Assembly (NCBI RefSeq): GCF_001677475.2
Contig: NZ_CP015229.1
Direction: 5' to 3' (one strand)
Length of the DNA: 64,000 nucleotides
Source of the DNA: Escherichia coli
GTDB taxonomy: Bacteria; Pseudomonadota; Gammaproteobacteria; Enterobacterales; Enterobacteriaceae
Made by a program: the position numbers and the translations under genes
Notes under the pieces: generated by a model
Seen by the model: the letters and a program-made list of their open reading frames with translations, nothing else
What the model was told of the DNA's origin: nothing
Databases searched by the model: none
In this document: piece after piece, positions 7,740 through 38,102 of the stretch
Position numbering within the stretch: the stretch's first letter is position 1
How the letters are laid out: every line of letters begins with the position of its first letter

Positions 7740-8297
7740 GTGATTAGCGATATCAGAAAAGATGCTGAAGTACGCATGGACAAATGCGTAGAAGCGTTCA
7801 AAACCCAAATCAGCAAAATACGCACGGGTCGTGCTTCTCCCAGCCTGCTGGATGGCATTGTCGTGGAATATTACGGCACGCCGACGCCGCTGCGTCAGCT
7901 GGCAAGCGTAACGGTAGAAGATTCCCGTACTCTGAAAATCAACGTGTTTGATCGTTCAATGTCTCCGGCCGTTGAAAAAGCGATTATGGCGTCCGATCTT
8001 GGCCTGAACCCGAACTCTGCGGGTAGCGACATCCGTGTTCCGCTGCCGCCGCTGACGGAAGAACGTCGTAAAGATCTGACCAAAATCGTTCGTGGTGAAG
8101 CAGAACAAGCGCGTGTTGCAGTACGTAACGTGCGTCGTGACGCGAACGACAAAGTGAAAGCACTGTTGAAAGATAAAGAGATCAGCGAAGACGACGATCG
8201 CCGTTCTCAGGACGATGTACAGAAACTGACTGATGCTGCAATCAAGAAAATTGAAGCGGCGCTGGCAGACAAAGAAGCAGAACTGATGCAGTTCTGA
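7740..8297 (+). CDS. frr: Ribosome recycling factor
   Basis: 185-aa ORF with GTG start, [46 protein letters not shown]... Confidence 0.95.
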
Positions 8298-9770: not shown

Positions 9771-10532
9771 GTGATGTTGTCTGCTACTCAACCACTTAGC
9801 GAAAAATTGCCAGCGCATGGCTGTCGTCATGTTGCGATCATTATGGACGGCAATGGTCGCTGGGCAAAAAAGCAAGGGAAGATTCGTGCCTTTGGGCATA
9901 AAGCCGGGGCAAAATCCGTCCGCCGGGCTGTCTCTTTTGCGGCCAACAACGGTATTGAGGCGTTAACTCTGTATGCCTTTAGTAGTGAAAACTGGAACCG
10001 ACCAGCGCAGGAAGTCAGTGCGTTAATGGAACTGTTTGTGTGGGCGCTTGATAGCGAAGTAAAGAGTCTGCACCGACATAACGTGCGTCTGCGTATTATT
10101 GGCGATACCAGTCGCTTTAACTCGCGTTTGCAAGAACGTATTCGTAAATCTGAAGCGCTAACAGCCGGGAATACCGGTCTGACGCTGAATATTGCGGCGA
10201 ACTACGGTGGACGTTGGGATATAGTCCAGGGAGTCAGGCAACTGGCTGAAAAGGTGCAGCAAGGAAACCTGCAACCAGATCAGATAGATGAAGAGATGCT
10301 AAACCAGCATGTCTGTATGCATGAACTGGCCCCTGTAGATTTAGTAATTAGGACTGGGGGGGAGCATCGCATTAGTAACTTTTTGCTTTGGCAAATTGCC
10401 TATGCCGAACTTTACTTTACAGATGTTCTCTGGCCCGATTTCGATGAACAAGACTTTGAAGGGGCGTTAAATGCCTTTGCTAATCGAGAGCGTCGTTTCG
10501 GCGGCACCGAGCCCGGTGATGAAACAGCCTGA
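9771..10532 (+). CDS. uppS: Undecaprenyl pyrophosphate synthase (ditrans,polycis-UPP synthase)
   Basis: 253-aa ORF MMLSATQPLSEKLPAHGCRHVAIIMDGNGRWAKKQG...; also known as ispU. Confidence 0.95.
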   Translation: MMLSATQPLSEKLPAHGCRHVAIIMDGNGRWAKKQGKIRAFGHKAGAKSVRRAVSFAANNGIEALTLYAFSSENWNRPAQEVSALMELFVWALDSEVKSLHRHNVRLRIIGDTSRFNSRLQERIRKSEALTAGNTGLTLNIAANYGGRWDIVQGVRQLAEKVQQGNLQPDQIDEEMLNQHVCMHELAPVDLVIRTGGEHRISNFLLWQIAYAELYFTDVLWPDFDEQDFEGALNAFANRERRFGGTEPGDETA

Positions 10533-12777: not shown

Positions 12778-15228
<2,451 letters not shown>

Positions 15229-15349
15229 GTGTTCTCCACAAAGGAATGTAGTGGTAGTGTAGCGATGACTTTAGGCGATCAATATAAGATCGTCGGGCCA
15301 CGCAAAGAACTGCACCCTCCGGTGCAAATGGGATGGTAAGGAGTTTATT

Positions 15350-15835
15350 GTGAAAAAGTGGTTATTAGCTGCAGGTCTCGGTTTAGCACTGGCAACTTCT
15401 GCTCAGGCGGCTGACAAAATTGCAATCGTCAATATGGGCAGCCTGTTCCAGCAGGTAGCGCAGAAAACCGGTGTTTCTAACACGCTGGAAAATGAGTTCA
15501 AAGGCCGTGCCAGCGAACTGCAGCGTATGGAAACCGATCTGCAGGCTAAAATGAAAAAGCTGCAGTCCATGAAAGCGGGCAGCGATCGCTCTAAGCTGGA
15601 AAAAGACGTGATGGCTCAGCGCCAGACTTTTGCTCAGAAAGCGCAGGCTTTTGAGCAGGATCGCGCACGTCGTTCCAACGAAGAACGCGGCAAACTGGTT
15701 ACTCGTATCCAGACTGCTGTGAAATCCGTTGCCAACAGCCAGGATATCGATCTGGTTGTTGATGCAAACGCCGTTGCTTACAACAGCAGCGATGTAAAAG
15801 ACATCACTGCCGACGTACTGAAACAGGTTAAATAA
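15350..15835 (+). CDS. skp: Periplasmic chaperone Skp
   Basis: 161-aa ORF, GTG start, signal peptide [20 protein letters not shown]. Confidence 0.95.
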
Positions 15836-15838
15836 GTA

Positions 15839-16864
15839 ATGCCTTCAATTCGACTGGCTGATTTAGCGCAGCAGTTGGATGCAGAACTACACGGTGATGG
15901 CGATATCGTCATCACCGGCGTTGCGTCCATGCAATCTGCACAAACAGGTCACATTACGTTCATGGTTAACCCAAAATACCGTGAGCATTTAGGCTTGTGC
16001 CAGGCGTCCGCGGTTGTCATGACCCAGGACGATCTTCCTTTCGCGAAAAGTGCCGCGCTGGTAGTGAAGAATCCCTACCTGACTTACGCGCGCATGGCGC
16101 AAATTTTAGATACCACGCCGCAGCCCGCGCAGAACATTGCACCCAGTGCGGTGATCGACGCGACGGCGAAGCTGGGTAACAACGTATCGATTGGCGCTAA
16201 CGCGGTGATTGAGTCCGGCGTTGAACTGGGCGATAACGTGATTATCGGTGCCGGTTGCTTCGTAGGTAAAAACAGCAAAATCGGTGCAGGTTCGCGTCTC
16301 TGGGCGAACGTAACCATTTACCATGAGATCCAGATCGGTCAGAATTGCCTGATCCAATCCGGAACAGTGGTAGGCGCAGACGGCTTTGGTTATGCCAACG
16401 ATCGTGGTAACTGGGTGAAGATCCCGCAGATAGGTCGCGTAATTATTGGCGATCGCGTGGAGATCGGCGCATGTACTACCATCGATCGCGGCGCGCTGGA
16501 TGACACTGTTATTGGCAATGGCGTGATCATTGATAACCAGTGCCAGATTGCACATAACGTCGTGATTGGCGACAATACGGCGGTTGCCGGTGGCGTCATT
16601 ATGGCGGGCAGCCTGAAAATTGGTCGTTACTGCATGATCGGCGGAGCCAGCGTAATCAACGGGCATATGGAAATATGCGACAAAGTGACGGTTACGGGCA
16701 TGGGTATGGTGATGCGTCCCATCACTGAACCAGGAGTCTATTCCTCAGGCATTCCGCTGCAACCCAACAAAGTCTGGCGCAAAACCGCTGCACTGGTGAT
16801 GAACATTGATGACATGAGCAAGCGTCTGAAATCGCTTGAGCGCAAGGTTAATCAACAAGACTAA
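15839..16864 (+). CDS. lpxD: UDP-3-O-(3-hydroxymyristoyl)glucosamine N-acyltransferase
   Basis: 341-aa [40 protein letters not shown]..., hexapeptide repeats. Confidence 0.95.
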
Positions 16865-16968
16865 CGTTCCATCTTTTGTTCGCCAAACTTTACGGCCTGT
16901 CTCATTCTTACGATTGCGGCAGGCCGTGTTATTATTGTCGTTTCTTATATTTTGACAGGAAGAGTATC

Positions 16969-17424
16969 TTGACTACTAACACTCATACTCTGCAGATTGA
17001 AGAGATTTTAGAACTTCTGCCGCACCGTTTCCCGTTCTTACTGGTGGATCGCGTGCTGGATTTTGAAGAAGGTCGTTTTCTGCGCGCAGTAAAAAATGTC
17101 TCTGTCAATGAGCCATTCTTCCAGGGCCATTTCCCTGGAAAACCGATTTTCCCGGGTGTGCTGATTCTGGAAGCAATGGCACAGGCAACAGGTATTCTGG
17201 CGTTTAAAAGCGTAGGAAAACTGGAACCGGGTGAGCTGTACTACTTCGCTGGTATTGACGAAGCGCGCTTCAAGCGCCCGGTCGTGCCTGGCGATCAAAT
17301 GATCATGGAAGTCACTTTCGAAAAAACGCGCCGCGGCCTGACCCGTTTTAAAGGGGTTGCTCTGGTCGACGGTAAAGTAGTTTGCGAAGCAACGATGATG
17401 TGTGCTCGTAGCCGGGAGGCCTGA
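16969..17424 (+). CDS. fabZ: 3-hydroxyacyl-ACP dehydratase FabZ
   Basis: ORF-track entry 16876-17424 trimmed to TTG start at 16969 giving (M)[34 protein letters not shown]... Confidence 0.9.
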
Positions 17425-17427
17425 TAC

Positions 17428-18216
17428 GTGATTGATAAATCCGCCTTTGTGCATCCAACCGCCATTGTGGAAGAGGGCGCGTCGATTGGCGCGAACGCTC
17501 ACATTGGTCCTTTTTGTATCGTTGGACCCCATGTCGAAATTGGTGAGGGTACCGTACTGAAATCTCACGTTGTCGTGAATGGTCATACTAAAATTGGCCG
17601 CGATAATGAGATTTATCAGTTCGCCTCCATCGGCGAAGTTAACCAGGATTTGAAATATGCTGGCGAACCGACCCGTGTGGAAATCGGCGATCGTAACCGC
17701 ATTCGCGAAAGCGTCACCATTCATCGTGGCACAGTCCAGGGCGGTGGATTGACGAAGGTGGGCAGCGACAACTTACTGATGATCAACGCGCACATTGCGC
17801 ACGATTGTACGGTAGGTAACCGCTGTATTCTCGCCAACAACGCAACGCTGGCGGGTCACGTATCGGTTGACGACTTCGCGATCATCGGCGGCATGACCGC
17901 AGTCCATCAGTTCTGCATCATTGGTGCGCATGTGATGGTTGGCGGCTGCTCCGGTGTGGCGCAGGACGTCCCTCCTTATGTCATTGCGCAGGGTAACCAC
18001 GCAACGCCGTTCGGTGTCAATATCGAAGGGCTGAAGCGCCGCGGATTCAGCCGTGAGGCGATTACCGCTATCCGCAATGCGTATAAGCTGATTTATCGTA
18101 GCGGTAAAACGCTCGATGAAGTGAAACCGGAAATTGCTGAACTGGCGGAAACATATCCGGAAGTGAAAGCCTTTACCGATTTCTTTGCACGCTCAACGCG
18201 CGGTCTGATTCGTTAA
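17428..18216 (+). CDS. lpxA: UDP-N-acetylglucosamine acyltransferase
   Basis: 262-aa ORF, GTG start, [42 protein letters not shown]... Confidence 0.95.
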
Positions 18217-19364
18217 TGACTGAACAGCGTCCATTAACGATTGCCCTGGTCGCCGGAGAAACCTCCGGCGATATCCTGGGGGCCGGTTTAATCCGCGCTC
18301 TGAAAGAACGTGTGCCCAAAGCCCGCTTTGTTGGTGTTGCCGGGCCACGAATGCAGGCTGAAGGCTGCGAAGCCTGGTACGAAATGGAAGAACTGGCGGT
18401 GATGGGCATTGTTGAAGTGCTCGGTCGTCTGCGTCGCTTACTGCATATTCGTGCCGATCTGACAAAGCGTTTTGGCGAACTGAAGCCAGATGTTTTTGTT
18501 GGTATTGATGCGCCTGACTTCAATATTACTCTTGAAGGTAACCTCAAAAAGCAGGGTATCAAAACCATTCATTACGTCAGTCCGTCCGTCTGGGCGTGGC
18601 GACAGAAACGCGTTTTCAAAATAGGCAGAGCCACCGATCTGGTGCTCGCATTTCTGCCTTTCGAAAAAGCGTTTTATGACAAATACAACGTGCCGTGCCG
18701 CTTTATCGGTCATACCATGGCTGATGCCATGCCGTTAGATCCAGATAAAAATGGTGCCCGTGATGTGCTGGGGATCCCTTACGATGCCCACTGTCTGGCA
18801 TTGTTGCCGGGCAGCCGTGGTGCAGAAGTTGAGATGCTTAGTGCCGATTTCCTGAAAACGGCCCAGCTTTTGCGCCAGACATATCCGGATCTCGAGATCG
18901 TGGTGCCGCTGGTGAATGCCAAACGCCGCGAGCAGTTTGAACGCATCAAAGCTGAAGTTGCGCCAGACCTGTCGGTTCATTTGCTGGATGGGATGGGCCG
19001 TGAGGCGATGGTCGCCAGCGATGCGGCGCTACTGGCGTCGGGTACGGCAGCACTGGAATGTATGCTGGCGAAATGCCCGATGGTGGTGGGATATCGCATG
19101 AAGCCTTTCACCTTCTGGCTGGCGAAGCGACTGGTGAAAACTGATTATGTCTCTCTACCCAATTTGCTGGCGGGCAGAGAGTTAGTCAAAGAGTTATTGC
19201 AGGAAGAGTGTGAGCCGCAAAAACTGGCAGAGGCGTTGTTACCGCTGTTGGCGAACGGGAAAACCAGCCACGCGATGCACGACACCTTCCGCGAACTGCA
19301 TCAGCAGATCCGCTGCAATGCCGATGAGCAGGCGGCACAAGCCGTTCTGGAGTTAGCACAATGA
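18216..19364 (+). CDS. lpxB: Lipid-A-disaccharide synthase
   Basis: 382-aa [34 protein letters not shown]...; start overlaps lpxA stop by 1 nt (taATGa). Confidence 0.95.
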
Positions 19365-19957
19365 TCGAATTTGTTTATCCGCACACGCAGCTTGTTGCGG
19401 GTGTGGATGAAGTCGGGCGCGGGCCGTTAGTTGGCGCGGTTGTCACCGCTGCAGTGATTCTCGACCCGGCGCGTCCGATTGTCGGGCTGAATGATTCCAA
19501 AAAGCTGAGCGAAAAACGCCGTCTGGCGTTGTATGAAGAGATTAAAGAGAAAGCGTTAAGCTGGAGTCTGGGTCGCGCTGAACCTCATGAAATCGACGAA
19601 CTGAATATTCTACACGCGACCATGCTGGCGATGCAGCGTGCGGTTGCGGGGCTGCATATCGTCCCGGAATATGTGTTGATTGATGGTAACCGCTGTCCGA
19701 AATTACCGATGCCTTCGATGGCAGTGGTGAAAGGCGACAGCCGCGTGCCGGAAATCAGTGCGGCGTCTATTCTGGCGAAAGTCACGCGCGACGCTGAAAT
19801 GGCGGCGCTGGACATCGTTTATCCACAATATGGCTTTGCCCAACACAAAGGGTATCCAACCGCTTTTCATCTTGAAAAACTGGCTGAACATGGCGCGACC
19901 GAACACCATCGGCGCAGCTTTGGCCCTGTCAAACGCGCACTGGGACTTGCGTCCTGA
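19361..19957 (+). CDS. rnhB: Ribonuclease HII
   Basis: 198-aa [38 protein letters not shown]...; 4-nt overlap with lpxB. Confidence 0.95.
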
Positions 19958-19993
19958 TTCTTGTGTCGAGATTAAGTAAACCGGAATCTGAAG

Positions 19994-22900
19994 ATGTCTG
20001 AACCACGTTTCGTACACCTGCGGGTGCACAGCGACTACTCGATGATCGATGGCCTGGCCAAAACCGCACCGCTGGTAAAAAAGGCGGCGGCGTTGGGTAT
20101 GCCAGCACTGGCGATCACCGATTTCACCAACCTTTGCGGTCTGGTGAAGTTCTACGGAGCGGGACATGGCGCAGGGATTAAGCCTATCGTCGGGGCAGAT
20201 TTTAATGTCCAGTGCGACCTGCTGGGTGATGAGTTAACCCACCTGACGGTACTGGCGGCGAACAATACCGGCTATCAGAATCTGACGTTGCTGATCTCAA
20301 AAGCGTATCAGCGCGGGTACGGTGCCGCCGGGCCGATCATCGATCGCGACTGGCTTATCGAATTAAACGAAGGGTTGATCCTTCTTTCCGGCGGGCGCAT
20401 GGGCGACGTCGGACGCAGTCTTTTGCGTGGTAACAGCGCGCTGGTAGATGAGTGTGTCGCATTTTATGAAGAACACTTCCCGGATCGCTATTTTCTCGAA
20501 CTGATTCGCACCGGCAGACCGGACGAAGAAAGCTATTTGCACGCGGCGGTGGAACTGGCGGAAGCGCGCGGTTTGCCCGTCGTGGCGACCAACGACGTGC
20601 GCTTTATCGACAGCAGCGACTTTGACGCACACGAAATCCGCGTCGCGATCCACGACGGCTTTACCCTCGACGATCCTAAACGCCCGCGTAACTATTCGCC
20701 GCAGCAATATATGCGTAGCGAAGAGGAGATGTGCGAGCTGTTTGCCGACATCCCCGAAGCTCTTGCCAACACCGTTGAGATCGCCAAACGTTGTAACGTA
20801 ACTGTGCGTCTGGGTGAATACTTCCTGCCGCAATTCCCGACCGGGGACATGAGCACCGAAGATTATCTGGTCAAGCGTGCAAAAGAAGGCCTGGAAGAGC
20901 GTCTGGCCTTTTTATTCCCTGATGAGGAAGAACGTGTTAAGCGCCGCCCGGAATATGACGAACGTCTGGAGACTGAACTTCAGGTTATCAACCAGATGGG
21001 CTTCCCGGGCTACTTCCTCATCGTTATGGAATTTATCCAGTGGTCGAAAGATAACGGCGTACCGGTAGGGCCAGGCCGTGGCTCCGGTGCGGGTTCACTG
21101 GTGGCCTACGCGCTGAAAATCACCGACCTCGATCCGCTGGAATTTGACCTGCTGTTCGAACGTTTCCTTAACCCGGAACGTGTCTCCATGCCTGACTTCG
21201 ACGTTGACTTCTGTATGGAGAAACGCGATCAGGTTATCGAACACGTAGCGGACATGTACGGTCGTGATGCGGTATCGCAGATTATCACCTTCGGTACGAT
21301 GGCGGCGAAAGCGGTGATCCGCGACGTAGGCCGCGTGCTGGGGCATCCGTACGGCTTTGTCGATCGTATCTCGAAACTGATCCCGCCCGATCCGGGGATG
21401 ACGCTGGCGAAAGCGTTTGAAGCCGAGCCGCAGCTGCCGGAAATCTACGAAGCGGATGAAGAAGTTAAGGCGCTGATCGACATGGCGCGCAAACTGGAAG
21501 GGGTTACCCGTAACGCCGGTAAGCACGCTGGTGGGGTGGTTATCGCGCCGACCAAAATTACTGATTTTGCGCCGCTTTATTGCGATGAAGAGGGCAAACA
21601 TCCGGTCACCCAGTTTGATAAAAGCGACGTTGAATACGCCGGGCTGGTGAAGTTCGACTTCCTCGGTTTGCGTACGCTCACCATCATCAACTGGGCGCTG
21701 GAGATGATCAACAAGCGGCGGGCGAAGAATGGCGAGCCGCCGCTGGATATCGCCGCGATCCCGCTGGATGACAAGAAAAGCTTCGACATGCTGCAACGCT
21801 CGGAAACCACGGCGGTATTCCAGCTTGAATCGCGCGGCATGAAGGACCTGATCAAGCGTCTGCAACCTGACTGCTTCGAAGATATGATCGCACTGGTGGC
21901 ACTGTTCCGCCCCGGCCCGTTGCAATCAGGGATGGTGGATAACTTTATCGACCGTAAACATGGTCGCGAAGAAATCTCCTATCCGGACGTACAGTGGCAG
22001 CATGAAAGCCTGAAACCGGTACTGGAGCCAACCTACGGCATCATCCTGTATCAGGAACAGGTCATGCAGATTGCGCAGGTGCTTTCTGGTTATACCCTCG
22101 GTGGCGCGGATATGCTGCGCCGTGCGATGGGTAAGAAAAAGCCGGAAGAGATGGCTAAGCAGCGTTCTGTATTTGCTGAAGGTGCAGAAAAGAACGGAAT
22201 CAACGCCGAACTGGCGATGAAAATCTTCGACCTGGTGGAGAAATTCGCTGGTTACGGATTTAACAAATCGCACTCTGCGGCCTATGCTTTGGTGTCATAT
22301 CAAACGTTATGGCTGAAAGCGCACTATCCGGCGGAGTTTATGGCGGCGGTAATGACCGCCGATATGGACAACACCGAGAAGGTGGTGGGCCTGGTGGATG
22401 AGTGCTGGCGGATGGGGCTGAAAATCCTGCCACCAGATATAAACTCCGGTCTTTACCATTTCCACGTCAACGACGACGGCGAAATCGTGTATGGTATTGG
22501 CGCGATCAAAGGGGTCGGTGAAGGTCCGATTGAGGCCATCATCGAAGCCCGTAACAAAGGCGGCTACTTCCGCGAACTGTTTGATCTCTGCGCCCGAACC
22601 GACACCAAAAAGTTAAACCGGCGGGTGCTGGAAAAACTGATCATGTCCGGGGCGTTTGACCGTCTTGGGCCACACCGCGCGGCGCTGATGAACTCGCTGG
22701 GCGATGCGTTAAAAGCGGCAGATCAACACGCGAAAGCGGAAGCTATCGGTCAGGCCGATATGTTCGGCGTGCTGGCCGAAGAGCCGGAACAAATTGAACA
22801 ATCCTACGCCAGCTGCCAACCGTGGCCGGAGCAGGTGGTATTAGATGGGGAACGTGAAACGTTAGGTCTGTACCTGACGGGACACCCTATCAACCAGTAT

Positions 22901-28546: not shown

Positions 28547-28807
28547 TCAGGACTCGCTCACCACCACCGTACCGATTTCCGGGTGGCTAAAGCTGGTAAT
28601 TTTATCCAGACGCAGCTCGCGGGTTGCACCAGCGGCTTCGACGACCAGATATTCCACATTTTTGCGGGAGACTAAATCACTGGCTTTTGCCTGCAATTTT
28701 TCGCCATCTTTCAGCTCAAGTGTCAGCATTAAATGATGCTGGCAGGCGAGCTCAAGATTATCGTAATCATCACAATTGATTGGTTGATACGTATCATTCA
28801 TTGACAT
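28547..28807 (-). CDS. rof: Rho-binding antiterminator Rof (YaeO)
   Basis: 86-aa [49 protein letters not shown]...; true start may be the third codon (MNDTYQ). Confidence 0.85.
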
Positions 28808-29159: not shown

Positions 29160-29705
29160 ATGGCGCTTAAAGCGACAATTTATAAAGCGACGGTTAATGT
29201 GGCCGATCTCGACCGCAACCAGTTTCTCGATGCCTCTCTGACGCTGGCGCGCCATCCTTCAGAAACCCAGGAGCGCATGATGCTGCGCTTGCTGGCATGG
29301 CTAAAATATGCCGATGAACGTCTGCAATTTACCCGTGGTTTGTGTGCCGATGATGAGCCGGAAGCGTGGCTGCGTAACGATCATTTGGGCATTGATTTGT
29401 GGATTGAGCTGGGGCTGCCGGATGAGCGACGAATTAAGAAAGCCTGCACCCAGGCCGCAGAAGTGGCACTGTTTACCTATAATAGTCGGGCGGCGCAAAT
29501 CTGGTGGCAGCAAAATCAGAGCAAATGTGCGCAGTTTGCCAATCTTTCCGTCTGGTATCTGGACGACGAGCAGCTGGCGAAAGTGAGCGCCTTTGCCGAT
29601 CGTACCATGACGCTGCAGGCAACGATTCAGGATGGTGTTATCTGGTTATCGGATGATAAGAATAATCTGGAAGTGAACTTAACCGCCTGGCAACAACCTT
29701 CATGA
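29160..29705 (+). CDS. yaeQ: YaeQ family protein
   Basis: 181-aa [50 protein letters not shown]... Confidence 0.9.
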
Positions 29706-30124
29706 TTGTGATTTCCCGACATGTTGCTATTCCCGATGGTGAGCTTGAGATCACCGCCATTCGTGCGCAGGGCGCGGGCGGGCAGCATGTTAATAAGACC
29801 TCAACGGCTATTCATCTGCGTTTTGACATTCGGGCGTCCAGCCTGCCAGAGTATTACAAAGAGCGTCTGCTCGCCGCCAGCCATCATTTGATCAGCAGTG
29901 ATGGCGTGATTGTCATTAAGGCACAGGAATACCGCAATCAGGAACTGAACCGCGAAGCGGCGCTGGCCCGGCTGGTGGCAGTGATTAAAGATTTAACAAC
30001 AGAACAAAAAGCCCGACGACCCACTCGCCCCACCCGTGCATCGAAAGAGCGCAGGCTGGCATCGAAAGCACAAAAATCAAGCGTGAAGGCGATGCGCGGC
30101 AAAGTGCGCAGCGGTCGGGAATAA
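29702..30124 (+). CDS. arfB: Peptidyl-tRNA hydrolase ArfB (YaeJ), ribosome rescue factor
   Basis: 140-aa ORF with GGQ motif ([19 protein letters not shown]) and basic C-terminal tail; 4-nt overlap with yaeQ. Confidence 0.9.
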
Positions 30125-33583: not shown

Positions 33584-34291
33584 TTAACGCGGTTCCAGCG
33601 CAAAGACTTCAAAACCTGCGTCGGTGACGCGCCAGCGAACGTTAAAATCATGCAGCCAGACGGCATAGGTTTTACCCGTTTCCTCACCTTTACGATAGGC
33701 CGGGCGCGGGTCCTGCGCCAGTACTTCGCGGATAAACAGCGTTAACTGCGGATAACGCTTCTCCAGCGCCAAAAGCTGCTTTTCGACCTCTGCGGTAAAA
33801 CTCACTGCCATTTCTGCCGCAGGCGCACTTTGCGCATAGCTGGCACTGGCATCGGGAAGCGATTCGGCAAAGGGGAGATACGGTTTGATATCCACCACCG
33901 GCGTCCCATCGACCAGATCCAGACTGCCGAGCTTCAGAATCACGCTGTCTTTATGGCAAACAACCTCTTTCAGCTCTACCAGCGACATACCAATTGGGTT
34001 AGGGCGAAAAGTGGAGCGTGTAGCGAAAACACCCATTCTGGCATTACCACCAAGACGAGGCGGACGCACAGTCGGACGCCAGCCGCCTTCCATCGTTTGA
34101 TGAAAGACGAAAAGGATCCATAAATGGCTGAATGCTTCCAGGCCGCGAACGGCGTCGGCCTGGTTGTAGGGAGCAATGAGATGCAGTTCGCCGTTGGCGC
34201 TTTTTACCAGACCTGGCTGGCGCGGAACGGCGAATTTTTCTTTATAGGGCGAGCGAATAACGCCTATTTGCTCGAACTGGAAACTGCTCAT
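33584..34291 (-). CDS. tsaA: tRNA (adenine37-N6)-methyltransferase TsaA/TrmO (YaeB)
   Basis: 235-aa ORF MSSFQFEQIGVIRSPYKEKFAVPRQPGLVKSANGELHLIAPYNQ... Confidence 0.9.
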   Translation of the reverse strand: MSSFQFEQIGVIRSPYKEKFAVPRQPGLVKSANGELHLIAPYNQADAVRGLEAFSHLWILFVFHQTMEGGWRPTVRPPRLGGNARMGVFATRSTFRPNPIGMSLVELKEVVCHKDSVILKLGSLDLVDGTPVVDIKPYLPFAESLPDASASYAQSAPAAEMAVSFTAEVEKQLLALEKRYPQLTLFIREVLAQDPRPAYRKGEETGKTYAVWLHDFNVRWRVTDAGFEVFALEPR

Positions 34292-35664: not shown

Positions 35665-36318
35665 TTACTTGCGAGTGACAGCCCGGACGATGCGGTCGCC
35701 TGCGAACTGAATTAAATAAACCAGAATGACCAGCAATACCAGTACCGTATTCATCACCGTCGCGTTGTAGCCGATGTAGCCATACTGATAGCCAATCTGA
35801 CCTAAACCACCGGCACCGACTGCACCACCCATCGCGGAATAACCAACCAGGGTAATCAGGGTGATAGTTGCCGCATTCACCAGACCCGGCAGCGCTTCCG
35901 GTAACAGCACCTTACGGACGATCTGCATCGGCGTGGCACCCATTGCGCGGGAAGCTTCAATTAACCCGGTTGGGATCTCCAGCAGAGCGTTCTCGACCAT
36001 ACGGGCAATAAACGGTGCTGCACCAACGGTTAACGGAACAATCGCTGCCTGCAAACCAATCGATGTACCGACAATAACGCGGGTAAACGGAATCATCCAT
36101 ACCAGCAAGATAATGAACGGGATGGAACGGAAAATGTTCACAATCGCAGAAACGGTACGATACAGCTTCGCGTTAGCAATAATTTGCCCCGGACGCGTGA
36201 CATAAAGCAGAACGCCAACCGGCAGACCAATCACAAAGCCAAAAAAACCGGATACGAAGGTCATTGCCAGCGTTTCCCATACGCCACGAACCAGCAGCCA
36301 CATCATCGGCTCAGACAT
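35665..36318 (-). CDS. metI: D-methionine ABC transporter permease
   Basis: 217-aa membrane [38 protein letters not shown]... Confidence 0.95.
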
Positions 36319-37529: not shown

Positions 37530-38102
37530 GTGGCGAAGAGCGTACCCGCAATTTTTCTTGACCGTGATGGCACCATTAATGTCGATCACGGCTATGTCCA
37601 TGAGATCGACAATTTTGAATTTATCGACGGTGTTATTGACGCCATGCGCGAGCTAAAAAAAATGGGCTTTGCGCTGGTGGTAGTAACCAACCAGTCTGGC
37701 ATTGCTCGCGGTAAATTTACTGAAGCGCAGTTTGAAACGCTGACCGAGTGGATGGACTGGTCGCTGGCGGACCGAGATGTCGATCTGGATGGCATCTATT
37801 ATTGCCCGCATCATCCGCAGGGTAGTGTTGAAGAGTTTCGCCAGGTCTGCGACTGCCGCAAACCACATCCGGGGATGCTTTTGTCGGCACGCGATTATTT
37901 GCATATTGATATGGCCGCTTCTTATATGGTGGGCGATAAATTAGAAGATATGCTGGCAGCGGCTGCGGCGAACGTGGGAACAAAAGTGCTGGTGCGTACG
38001 GGTAAACCTGTTACGCCTGAAGCAGAAAATGCAGCGGATTGGGTGTTAAATAGCCTGGCAGACCTGCCGCAAGCGATAAAAAAGCAGCAAAAACCGGCGT
38101 AA
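37530..38102 (+). CDS. gmhB: D-glycero-beta-D-manno-heptose-1,7-bisphosphate 7-phosphatase
   Basis: 190-aa ORF, GTG start, (M)[34 protein letters not shown] (HAD DxDGT motif). Confidence 0.9.

Follow-up and report, generated by a model that had tools for sequence, protein, structure and literature searches.

The gene pairs of the trp operon are the classical example of translationally coupled genes. Across prokaryotes, the overlap classes with -4 or -1 nt spacing occur most often and are the most enriched, and coupling works best if the stop and the next start are separated by -4 to +3 nt (PMC12548453). Initiation at GUG or UUG codons, placed behind a Shine-Dalgarno (SD) motif and decoded as formylmethionine, is equally familiar, and about 18% of the starts in well-annotated genomes are non-ATG. 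Both features occur together in the skp-lpxD-fabZ-lpxA-lpxB-rnhB block of a 64,000-nt stretch of Escherichia coli contig NZ_CP015229.1 (hereafter the window). The K-12 counterpart, skp-lpxD-fabZ-lpxA-lpxB-rnhB-dnaE (b0178-b0184, NC_000913.3), has the same genes, order, start codons and start distances. The window comes from a different lineage, but no difference touches the junctions. We consider it very probable that the starts assigned here are the true, evolutionarily fixed boundaries of the genes of this block as well as of frr, yaeQ-arfB and gmhB, with coupling inferred at the junctions. These features are already known from the curated K-12 operon and fit two textbook categories: translational coupling across short stop/start overlaps, and initiation at GUG/UUG. 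None of them is new in kind.

Like the coupled overlapping pairs described previously (Huber et al. 2019, PMC6728339; reviewed in PMC12548453), the pairs in the window are co-directional and meet in a -4 nt ATGA or a -1 nt TAATG, with an SD that either lies within the preceding gene (rnhB) or is missing (lpxB, arfB). They differ from the described pairs in their products: LpxA and LpxB are enzymes of consecutive pathway steps, LpxB and RnhB are functionally unrelated, and neither pair forms known subunits of one complex. The frequency of non-ATG starts is close to the genome norm, as the first 38 kb hold 35 complete genes, seven of which carry one (20% against ~18% expected, p = 0.46); for the frr-rnhB run the count is five of 12 (p = 0.05, post hoc). 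Beyond usual non-AUG initiation, the sole addition made by this locus is that the fabZ TTG and the lpxA GTG are conserved without exception in about 80 Enterobacteriaceae species.

The starts are constrained by the open reading frames (ORFs) themselves. For lpxD, lpxA, lpxB, rnhB, arfB, frr, skp and gmhB, the frame is closed by a stop 6-78 nt upstream, and the interval contains no ATG, GTG or TTG; the overlaps and GTG starts therefore follow from ORF structure alone. A sequence-only reading of the window had proposed a TTG start for fabZ and GTG starts for frr, skp, lpxA and gmhB, a single nucleotide shared by lpxA and lpxB, and 4-nt overlaps at lpxB/rnhB and yaeQ/arfB. The five start codons agree with the sequence and with RefSeq, and both ATGA overlaps can be read directly in the sequence. 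The shared nucleotide of lpxA and lpxB is also present, with a slip in the coordinates: the six letters taATGa occupy 18214-18219, not 18214-18218.

As the reference annotation, we mapped the RefSeq coding sequences (CDS) of E. coli NZ_CP018957.1 (locus L001) on the window by BLAST. All of them map end to end and gap-free in the block, and the gene order and gene limits agree with the curated E. coli annotation. The ten ORFs (frr, skp, lpxD, fabZ, lpxA, lpxB, rnhB, yaeQ, arfB and gmhB) are intact and coincide with RefSeq CDS, frr being 100% identical to its counterpart. Moreover, the start-to-start distances of 489, 1130, 459, 788, 1145, 633 and 542 nt equal the K-12 distances (Table S2 of PMC9825163), and the window starts are therefore the curated K-12 starts. 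The trimmed starts of the earlier reading are thus those of both RefSeq E. coli and K-12. The start-site contexts, compared by eye with the oligonucleotide table of the INRI-seq study, are the same as in K-12 over 25-30 nt.

Protein profiles point to the same boundaries. Skp, LpxD, FabZ, LpxA, LpxB, RNase HII, ArfB, Frr and GmhB match NCBIfam equivalog or subfamily models far above the cut-offs (model names include frr, lipid_A_lpxD, lipid_A_lpxA, lpxB and ribonuclease HII), and the profiles begin at, or a few residues from, the proposed N-termini. In the case of LpxB, residues 1-380 align to positions 1-382 of the 382 in the lpxB profile. YaeQ has no NCBIfam model match and is 96.9% identical to annotated yaeQ.

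The sequence-only reading had also attributed the 5' over-extension of several entries in the mechanical ORF list to the overlaps and non-ATG starts. The fabZ entry is indeed too long, beginning at 16876 instead of 16969 (93 nt), but it is the only such entry in the block, and the overlaps are not the cause. The skp, lpxA, frr and gmhB entries begin exactly at the true GTG and none is over-extended, whereas ispU, rseP, yaeR, proS, yaeF and yaeP are over-extended elsewhere in the window. Over-extension arises where the interval from the upstream stop to the true start happens to hold an unrelated in-frame ATG, GTG or TTG, and neither overlaps nor non-ATG starts produce it.

The long fabZ entry bears on the possibility that some starts are mis-annotated, for instance that fabZ begins at TTG 16876 or that GTG/TTG genes begin at a nearby ATG. 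Annotation of this kind does err: the K-12 ispU start is one codon too long (GTG 9771 against ATG 9774), and Table S3 of the INRI-seq study lists alternative peaks at an ATT 9 nt upstream for frr and at a CTG 30 nt downstream for rnhB (PMC9825163). For frr, skp, lpxA and gmhB, however, the nearby upstream stops described above leave no other start codon. For fabZ, TTG 16876 belongs to the ~30 nt that directly follow the lpxD stop (16865-16895 in the window; 57 related spacers of similar length), an unconserved segment of variable length, whereas AGGAAGAG-N4-TTG (16957-16971) is invariant in the spacer comparison, the SD being found in 77 and the TTG in all 78 of 78 species. The spacer between lpxD and fabZ is 99-240 nt long across all loci that have both genes. 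Furthermore, the NCBIfam FabZ equivalog begins at residue 9 of the protein read from TTG 16969, the equivalent K-12 codon carries a strong initiation signal in vivo (see below), and N-terminal peptides confirm the frr and gmhB starts among the matches listed in PMC13245402. We therefore regard mis-annotation as highly implausible.

At ispU/uppS itself, the start reads GTGATG (9771-9776). K-12 annotation takes GTG 9771, and the RefSeq Prokaryotic Genome Annotation Pipeline (PGAP) takes ATG 9774, one codon later. The peptide MLSATQPLSEK... in published N-terminomics favours ATG 9774.

Experimental initiation data for K-12 were taken from Table S2 of PMC9825163, which holds INRI-seq values (cell-free initiation footprints, five replicates) and Ribo-RET values, the latter from in vivo retapamulin profiling (Meydan et al. 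2019) re-analysed in that study. The check by ribosome profiling that the sequence-only reading had proposed gave K-12 initiation peaks at all five non-ATG starts. The frr GTG was detected by INRI-seq and reached 547 counts per million (CPM) in Ribo-RET; for skp the two values are ~143 and 92 CPM, for the equivalent of fabZ TTG 16969 ~40 and 240 CPM, for lpxA ~16 and 121 CPM, and for gmhB ~170 and 7.9 CPM (PMC9825163). The rnhB ATG gave a weak INRI-seq signal and 5.5 CPM in Ribo-RET, and lpxD, lpxB, arfB and dnaE had zero signal in both (PMC9825163). The non-ATG starts lie 5-8 nt from SDs with pairing energies of -4.3 to -10.3 kcal/mol. We take the GTG and TTG codons to be genuine initiation sites. 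Two further non-ATG starts occur in the window, a TTG at cdsA (10545) and a GTG at yaeP (28994, minus strand); in K-12 the cdsA TTG has no INRI-seq peak and a weak Ribo-RET signal (PMC9825163).

In the Ribo-RET column of Table S2, each of the 11 minus-strand genes of window positions 1-37342, map, proS and metQ among them, has a value of exactly zero. The column may thus suffer from a strand problem and is unfit as evidence for those genes. Ribo-RET was not used for tsaA or rof.

At the protein level, deformylation-assisted N-terminomics lists N-terminal peptides at the frr and gmhB GTG codons (PMC13245402). The matches listed there also include an internal, initiation-type N-terminus of K-12 Skp at Met60 (METDLQAK...), and the window has an ATG at the corresponding 15527-15529. 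The sequence-only reading would have been contradicted by differing N-termini, and among the matches listed no experimental N-terminus departs from the trimmed starts. A cleaved signal peptide would account for the lack of an N-terminal peptide from Skp.

To follow the starts through evolution, one genome per species was scanned with LpxA, which yielded 80 Enterobacteriaceae loci with 88-97% protein identity. The fabZ start is TTG in 78/78 species and the lpxA start GTG in 81/81; skp starts with GTG in 72 and with TTG in three of 75 species, and lpxD, lpxB and rnhB start with ATG wherever readable. The junctions are similarly stable. A gap of +3 nt separates skp from lpxD in 73 of 76 loci and fabZ from lpxA in all 81; lpxA and lpxB meet as TAATG in about 59 and as TAAATG in 21, with a spacing of -1 or 0 in all; and lpxB/rnhB reads ATGA in 75 of 79, with a conserved CTGGAG motif. 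Five species with an apparent -4 nt lpxA/lpxB spacing, and odd codons at one locus (L017), proved to be tblastn projection artefacts, the sequences themselves having TAATG. Long antisense open stretches in lpxD, lpxA and lpxB were also set aside, as their length ranges from ~100 to 380 codons between species and they are hence not conserved ORFs.

In these genes only 0-5% of the fourfold-degenerate sites are invariant and each site shows ~3.4 states, that is, synonymous change is saturated. Invariant start codons against this background argue that the identity of the weak start codons, and not just the existence of a start, is under purifying selection in Enterobacteriaceae. It is unlikely in our view that the GTG and TTG starts are instead neutral substitutes for ATG that leave the expression level unchanged. 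One clade has exchanged the skp GTG for TTG, and distant relatives have ATG at fabZ and ATG or GTG at lpxA, as such neutrality would allow. Yet the start would survive replacement of one base to give ATG, and no such change is seen in 78 fabZ or 81 lpxA genes although 95-100% of the fourfold sites vary. GTG and TTG are reportedly weaker initiators than ATG in general (Hecht et al.), and in this block they would probably fix lower translation rates.

Two distant relatives with 52-55% LpxA identity have other tight arrangements. In one, fabZ starts with ATG and overlaps lpxA by 1 nt; in the other, fabZ and lpxA overlap as GTGA and lpxB and rnhB again as ATGA. Tight junctions are thus generic to the lpx cluster. 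Within this small sample, which includes the two distant relatives, Enterobacteriaceae alone had the fabZ TTG. The description of the locus as ordinary in the sequence-only reading thus agrees with annotation, K-12 initiation data, N-terminomics and 80 related species.

In the window, fabZ and lpxA share one reading frame with TGA TAC alone between them (17422-17430). Five of the 50%-identity protein representatives (P0002, P0040, P0046, P0067 and P0130) are predicted single ORFs of 411-586 aa in which a complete LpxA is linked to a FabA-like/FabZ domain; they may be true fusions or may stem from errors of assembly or gene calling.

The junctions themselves suggest how the genes might be translated. 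All the spacings, +3 nt at skp/lpxD and fabZ/lpxA, -1 nt at lpxA/lpxB and -4 nt at lpxB/rnhB and yaeQ/arfB, fall within the coupling range of -4 to +3 nt. The SD pairing energies are -10.3 kcal/mol for lpxA, -8.7 for skp, -8.4 for gmhB and -5.9 for rnhB; those of lpxD (-3.2), lpxB (-2.4), tsaA (-2.1) and arfB (-1.5) are weak. The junction genes thus fall into two groups, with an SD inside the upstream gene (lpxA, rnhB) or with none (lpxB, arfB, lpxD, tsaA). The lpxB start region costs 16.2 kcal/mol to open, the joint highest with tsaA among 19 start regions. Initiation was detected for one of the five weak-SD junction genes as against 25 of the 30 other window genes (Fisher p = 0.01, post hoc). 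Weak or missing SDs, absent K-12 initiation signals and tight spacing together lead us to read lpxB, arfB and probably lpxD as coupled.

At the four junctions of the block, a terminating ribosome would restart on the next gene, or its passage would leave the downstream start region unfolded. Lacking a usable SD, lpxB, arfB and probably lpxD would be translated mainly by ribosomes arriving from lpxA, yaeQ and skp, respectively. At rnhB and lpxA, the SD in the upstream gene would allow independent starts, and these genes may be only partly coupled. Termination-reinitiation has a precedent in native E. coli pairs with -4 nt spacing, of which four of the five tested were coupled in this way with variable SD dependence (Huber et al. 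2019, PMC6728339). For the pairs of the window it is inferred, not demonstrated.

Several points weigh against these assignments or the coupling drawn from them. The initiation and N-terminal data come from K-12 and not from the strain of the window, and N-terminal peptides of FabZ, LpxA, LpxB, LpxD, RnhB and ArfB are absent among the matches listed in PMC13245402. A missing INRI-seq or Ribo-RET peak may simply reflect a weak or structured site, and INRI-seq misses ~30% of all annotated starts. Genes outside tight junctions, dnaE and tilS, also lack peaks, and rof, an overlapping gene with a weak SD, has an INRI-seq peak. Our literature searches returned no relevant work on lpxA/lpxB coupling or the fabZ TTG and no experiment on these pairs, and one of the five native E. 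coli pairs was not coupled (Huber et al. 2019, PMC6728339).

The uncoupled native pair would also suit an account in which genome compaction has produced the overlaps as neutral side effects, each downstream gene binding ribosomes independently and the spacing playing no role in expression. The same account could draw on rnhB and lpxA, which have their own SDs and independent initiation peaks, and on the drift of the lpxA/lpxB spacing from -1 to 0 among species. It has difficulty with lpxB, arfB and lpxD, which lack an SD and show no sign of initiation either in vivo or on isolated fragments, even though lpxD and lpxB are usually regarded as essential and expressed. Nor would neutrality readily keep the spacings within -4 to +3 nt in ~80 species despite synonymous saturation. 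On balance we judge the neutral account quite unlikely and favour coupling at the junctions.

The block genes are presumably co-transcribed as an operon. At the lpxA/lpxB and lpxB/rnhB junctions, neither a consensus scan nor published Term-seq data gave a terminator-like site or an RNA 3' end; published Term-seq does place ORF-internal 3' ends inside lpxD, fabZ and lpxB. The promoter/terminator consensus scan of 15200-20100 gave counts equal to the shuffle expectation and is uninformative. A perfect 8-bp hairpin, CGCCGGAG-AAAC-CTCCGGCG, lies at 18251-18277, 35 nt into lpxB, and a published ORF-internal Term-seq 3' end sits just past it (K-12 203409, window 18277). This hairpin may contribute to the structured lpxB start region.

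A more prominent structure lies in the spacer between lpxD and fabZ. The GC-rich hairpin and its U-rich tail (Table 1) are conserved, the hairpin being found in 77 of 78 species in 55 distinct sequences, with a mean folding energy of -21.9 kcal/mol against -9.0 kcal/mol for shuffled sequences (z = -5.3). A published Term-seq RNA 3' end at K-12 202063/4 corresponds to window 16931/16932, 5-6 nt past the stem. Situated between the two genes, the spacer hairpin probably serves as a leaky terminator or marks a processing end that is protected. In the same spacer, genomic SELEX (systematic evolution of ligands by exponential enrichment) placed an RpoD site, with a predicted promoter that overlaps the 5' arm of the hairpin in the less conserved 5' part, and one laboratory employed the 104-bp spacer as the operon promoter. 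By eye, the conserved part of the spacer holds no convincing sigma-70 hexamer pair. An Rfam scan of 7000-39000 at gathering thresholds returned 16S rRNA only, and the spacer hairpin has no Rfam family.

Taken together, the weak starts, the junctions of -4 to +3 nt and the spacer hairpin with its 3' end might form a hard-wired device that fixes the ratio in which LpxD : FabZ : LpxA : LpxB are synthesised where lipid A and phospholipid synthesis diverge, at R-3-hydroxymyristoyl-ACP. We offer this tentatively and think it rather doubtful. If true, it would explain why the elements are unchanged in ~80 Enterobacteriaceae species despite saturated synonymous divergence, and a proper balance of lipid A and phospholipid is known to be crucial. 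That the fabZ TTG and lpxA GTG never vary likewise hints at selection on expression ratios at the lipid A/fatty-acid branch point. Such selection could interest those who engineer or target the pathway, and would be the expected kind of result. In practice, lpxB, arfB and probably lpxD are likely to fail in expression if a cloned or engineered construct omits the last part of the gene before them. For annotating the block, the trimmed starts should serve and not the longest ORFs; beyond correct annotation the features have little importance.

Table 1. Genes, stop/start junctions and spacer hairpin, in window coordinates.
Feature	Position	Strand	Details
frr	7740-8297	+	GTG start; RefSeq match
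skp	15350-15835	+	GTG start; SD GGTAAGGAG at 15335-15343
skp/lpxD junction TAAGTAATG	15833-15841	+	+3 nt gap; lpxD SD weak
lpxD	15839-16864	+	ATG start
Hairpin and U-rich tail	16893-16941 (hairpin 16893-16926)	+	GC-rich CGGCCTG...CAGGCCG, then UGUUAUUAUUG
fabZ	16969-17424	+	TTG start; SD AGGAAGAG; SD and start span 16957-16971
fabZ/lpxA junction TGATACGTG (TGA TAC GTG)	17414-17430	+	+3 nt gap, same frame; SD GGGAGG within fabZ 3' end
lpxA	17428-18216	+	GTG start
lpxA/lpxB junction TAATG	18214-18218	+	Stop TAA 18214-18216, start ATG 18216-18218; base 18216 in common
lpxB	18216-19364	+	ATG start
lpxB/rnhB junction ATGA	19361-19364	+	4-nt overlap; SD GGAG 19349-19352 inside lpxB
rnhB	19361-19957	+	ATG start
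yaeQ	29160-29705	+	ATG start
yaeQ/arfB junction ATGA	29702-29705	+	4-nt overlap
arfB	29702-30124	+	ATG start; no SD
gmhB	37530-38102	+	GTG start

The block sits in a dapD...rrnH stretch of an Escherichia chromosome. Of 5426 complete E. coli genomes, 5423 are matched by a 4.8-kb query centred on the block, but none closely, the top identity being 98.3%. In the 19000-20000 region, rnhB is at most 93.3% identical to that of any of the 5423 genomes. Window positions 3.5-18.5 kb are 98.4-100% identical to the E. coli reference genome used for annotation (L001), and dapD/glnD are 94-97% identical. These identities suggest that the window may represent a divergent or mosaic Escherichia lineage. Overlaps also occur elsewhere in the window, at rof/yaeP (14 nt, 28794-28807), tsaA/rcsF (4 nt, 34288-34291) and metI/metN (8 nt, 36311-36318).

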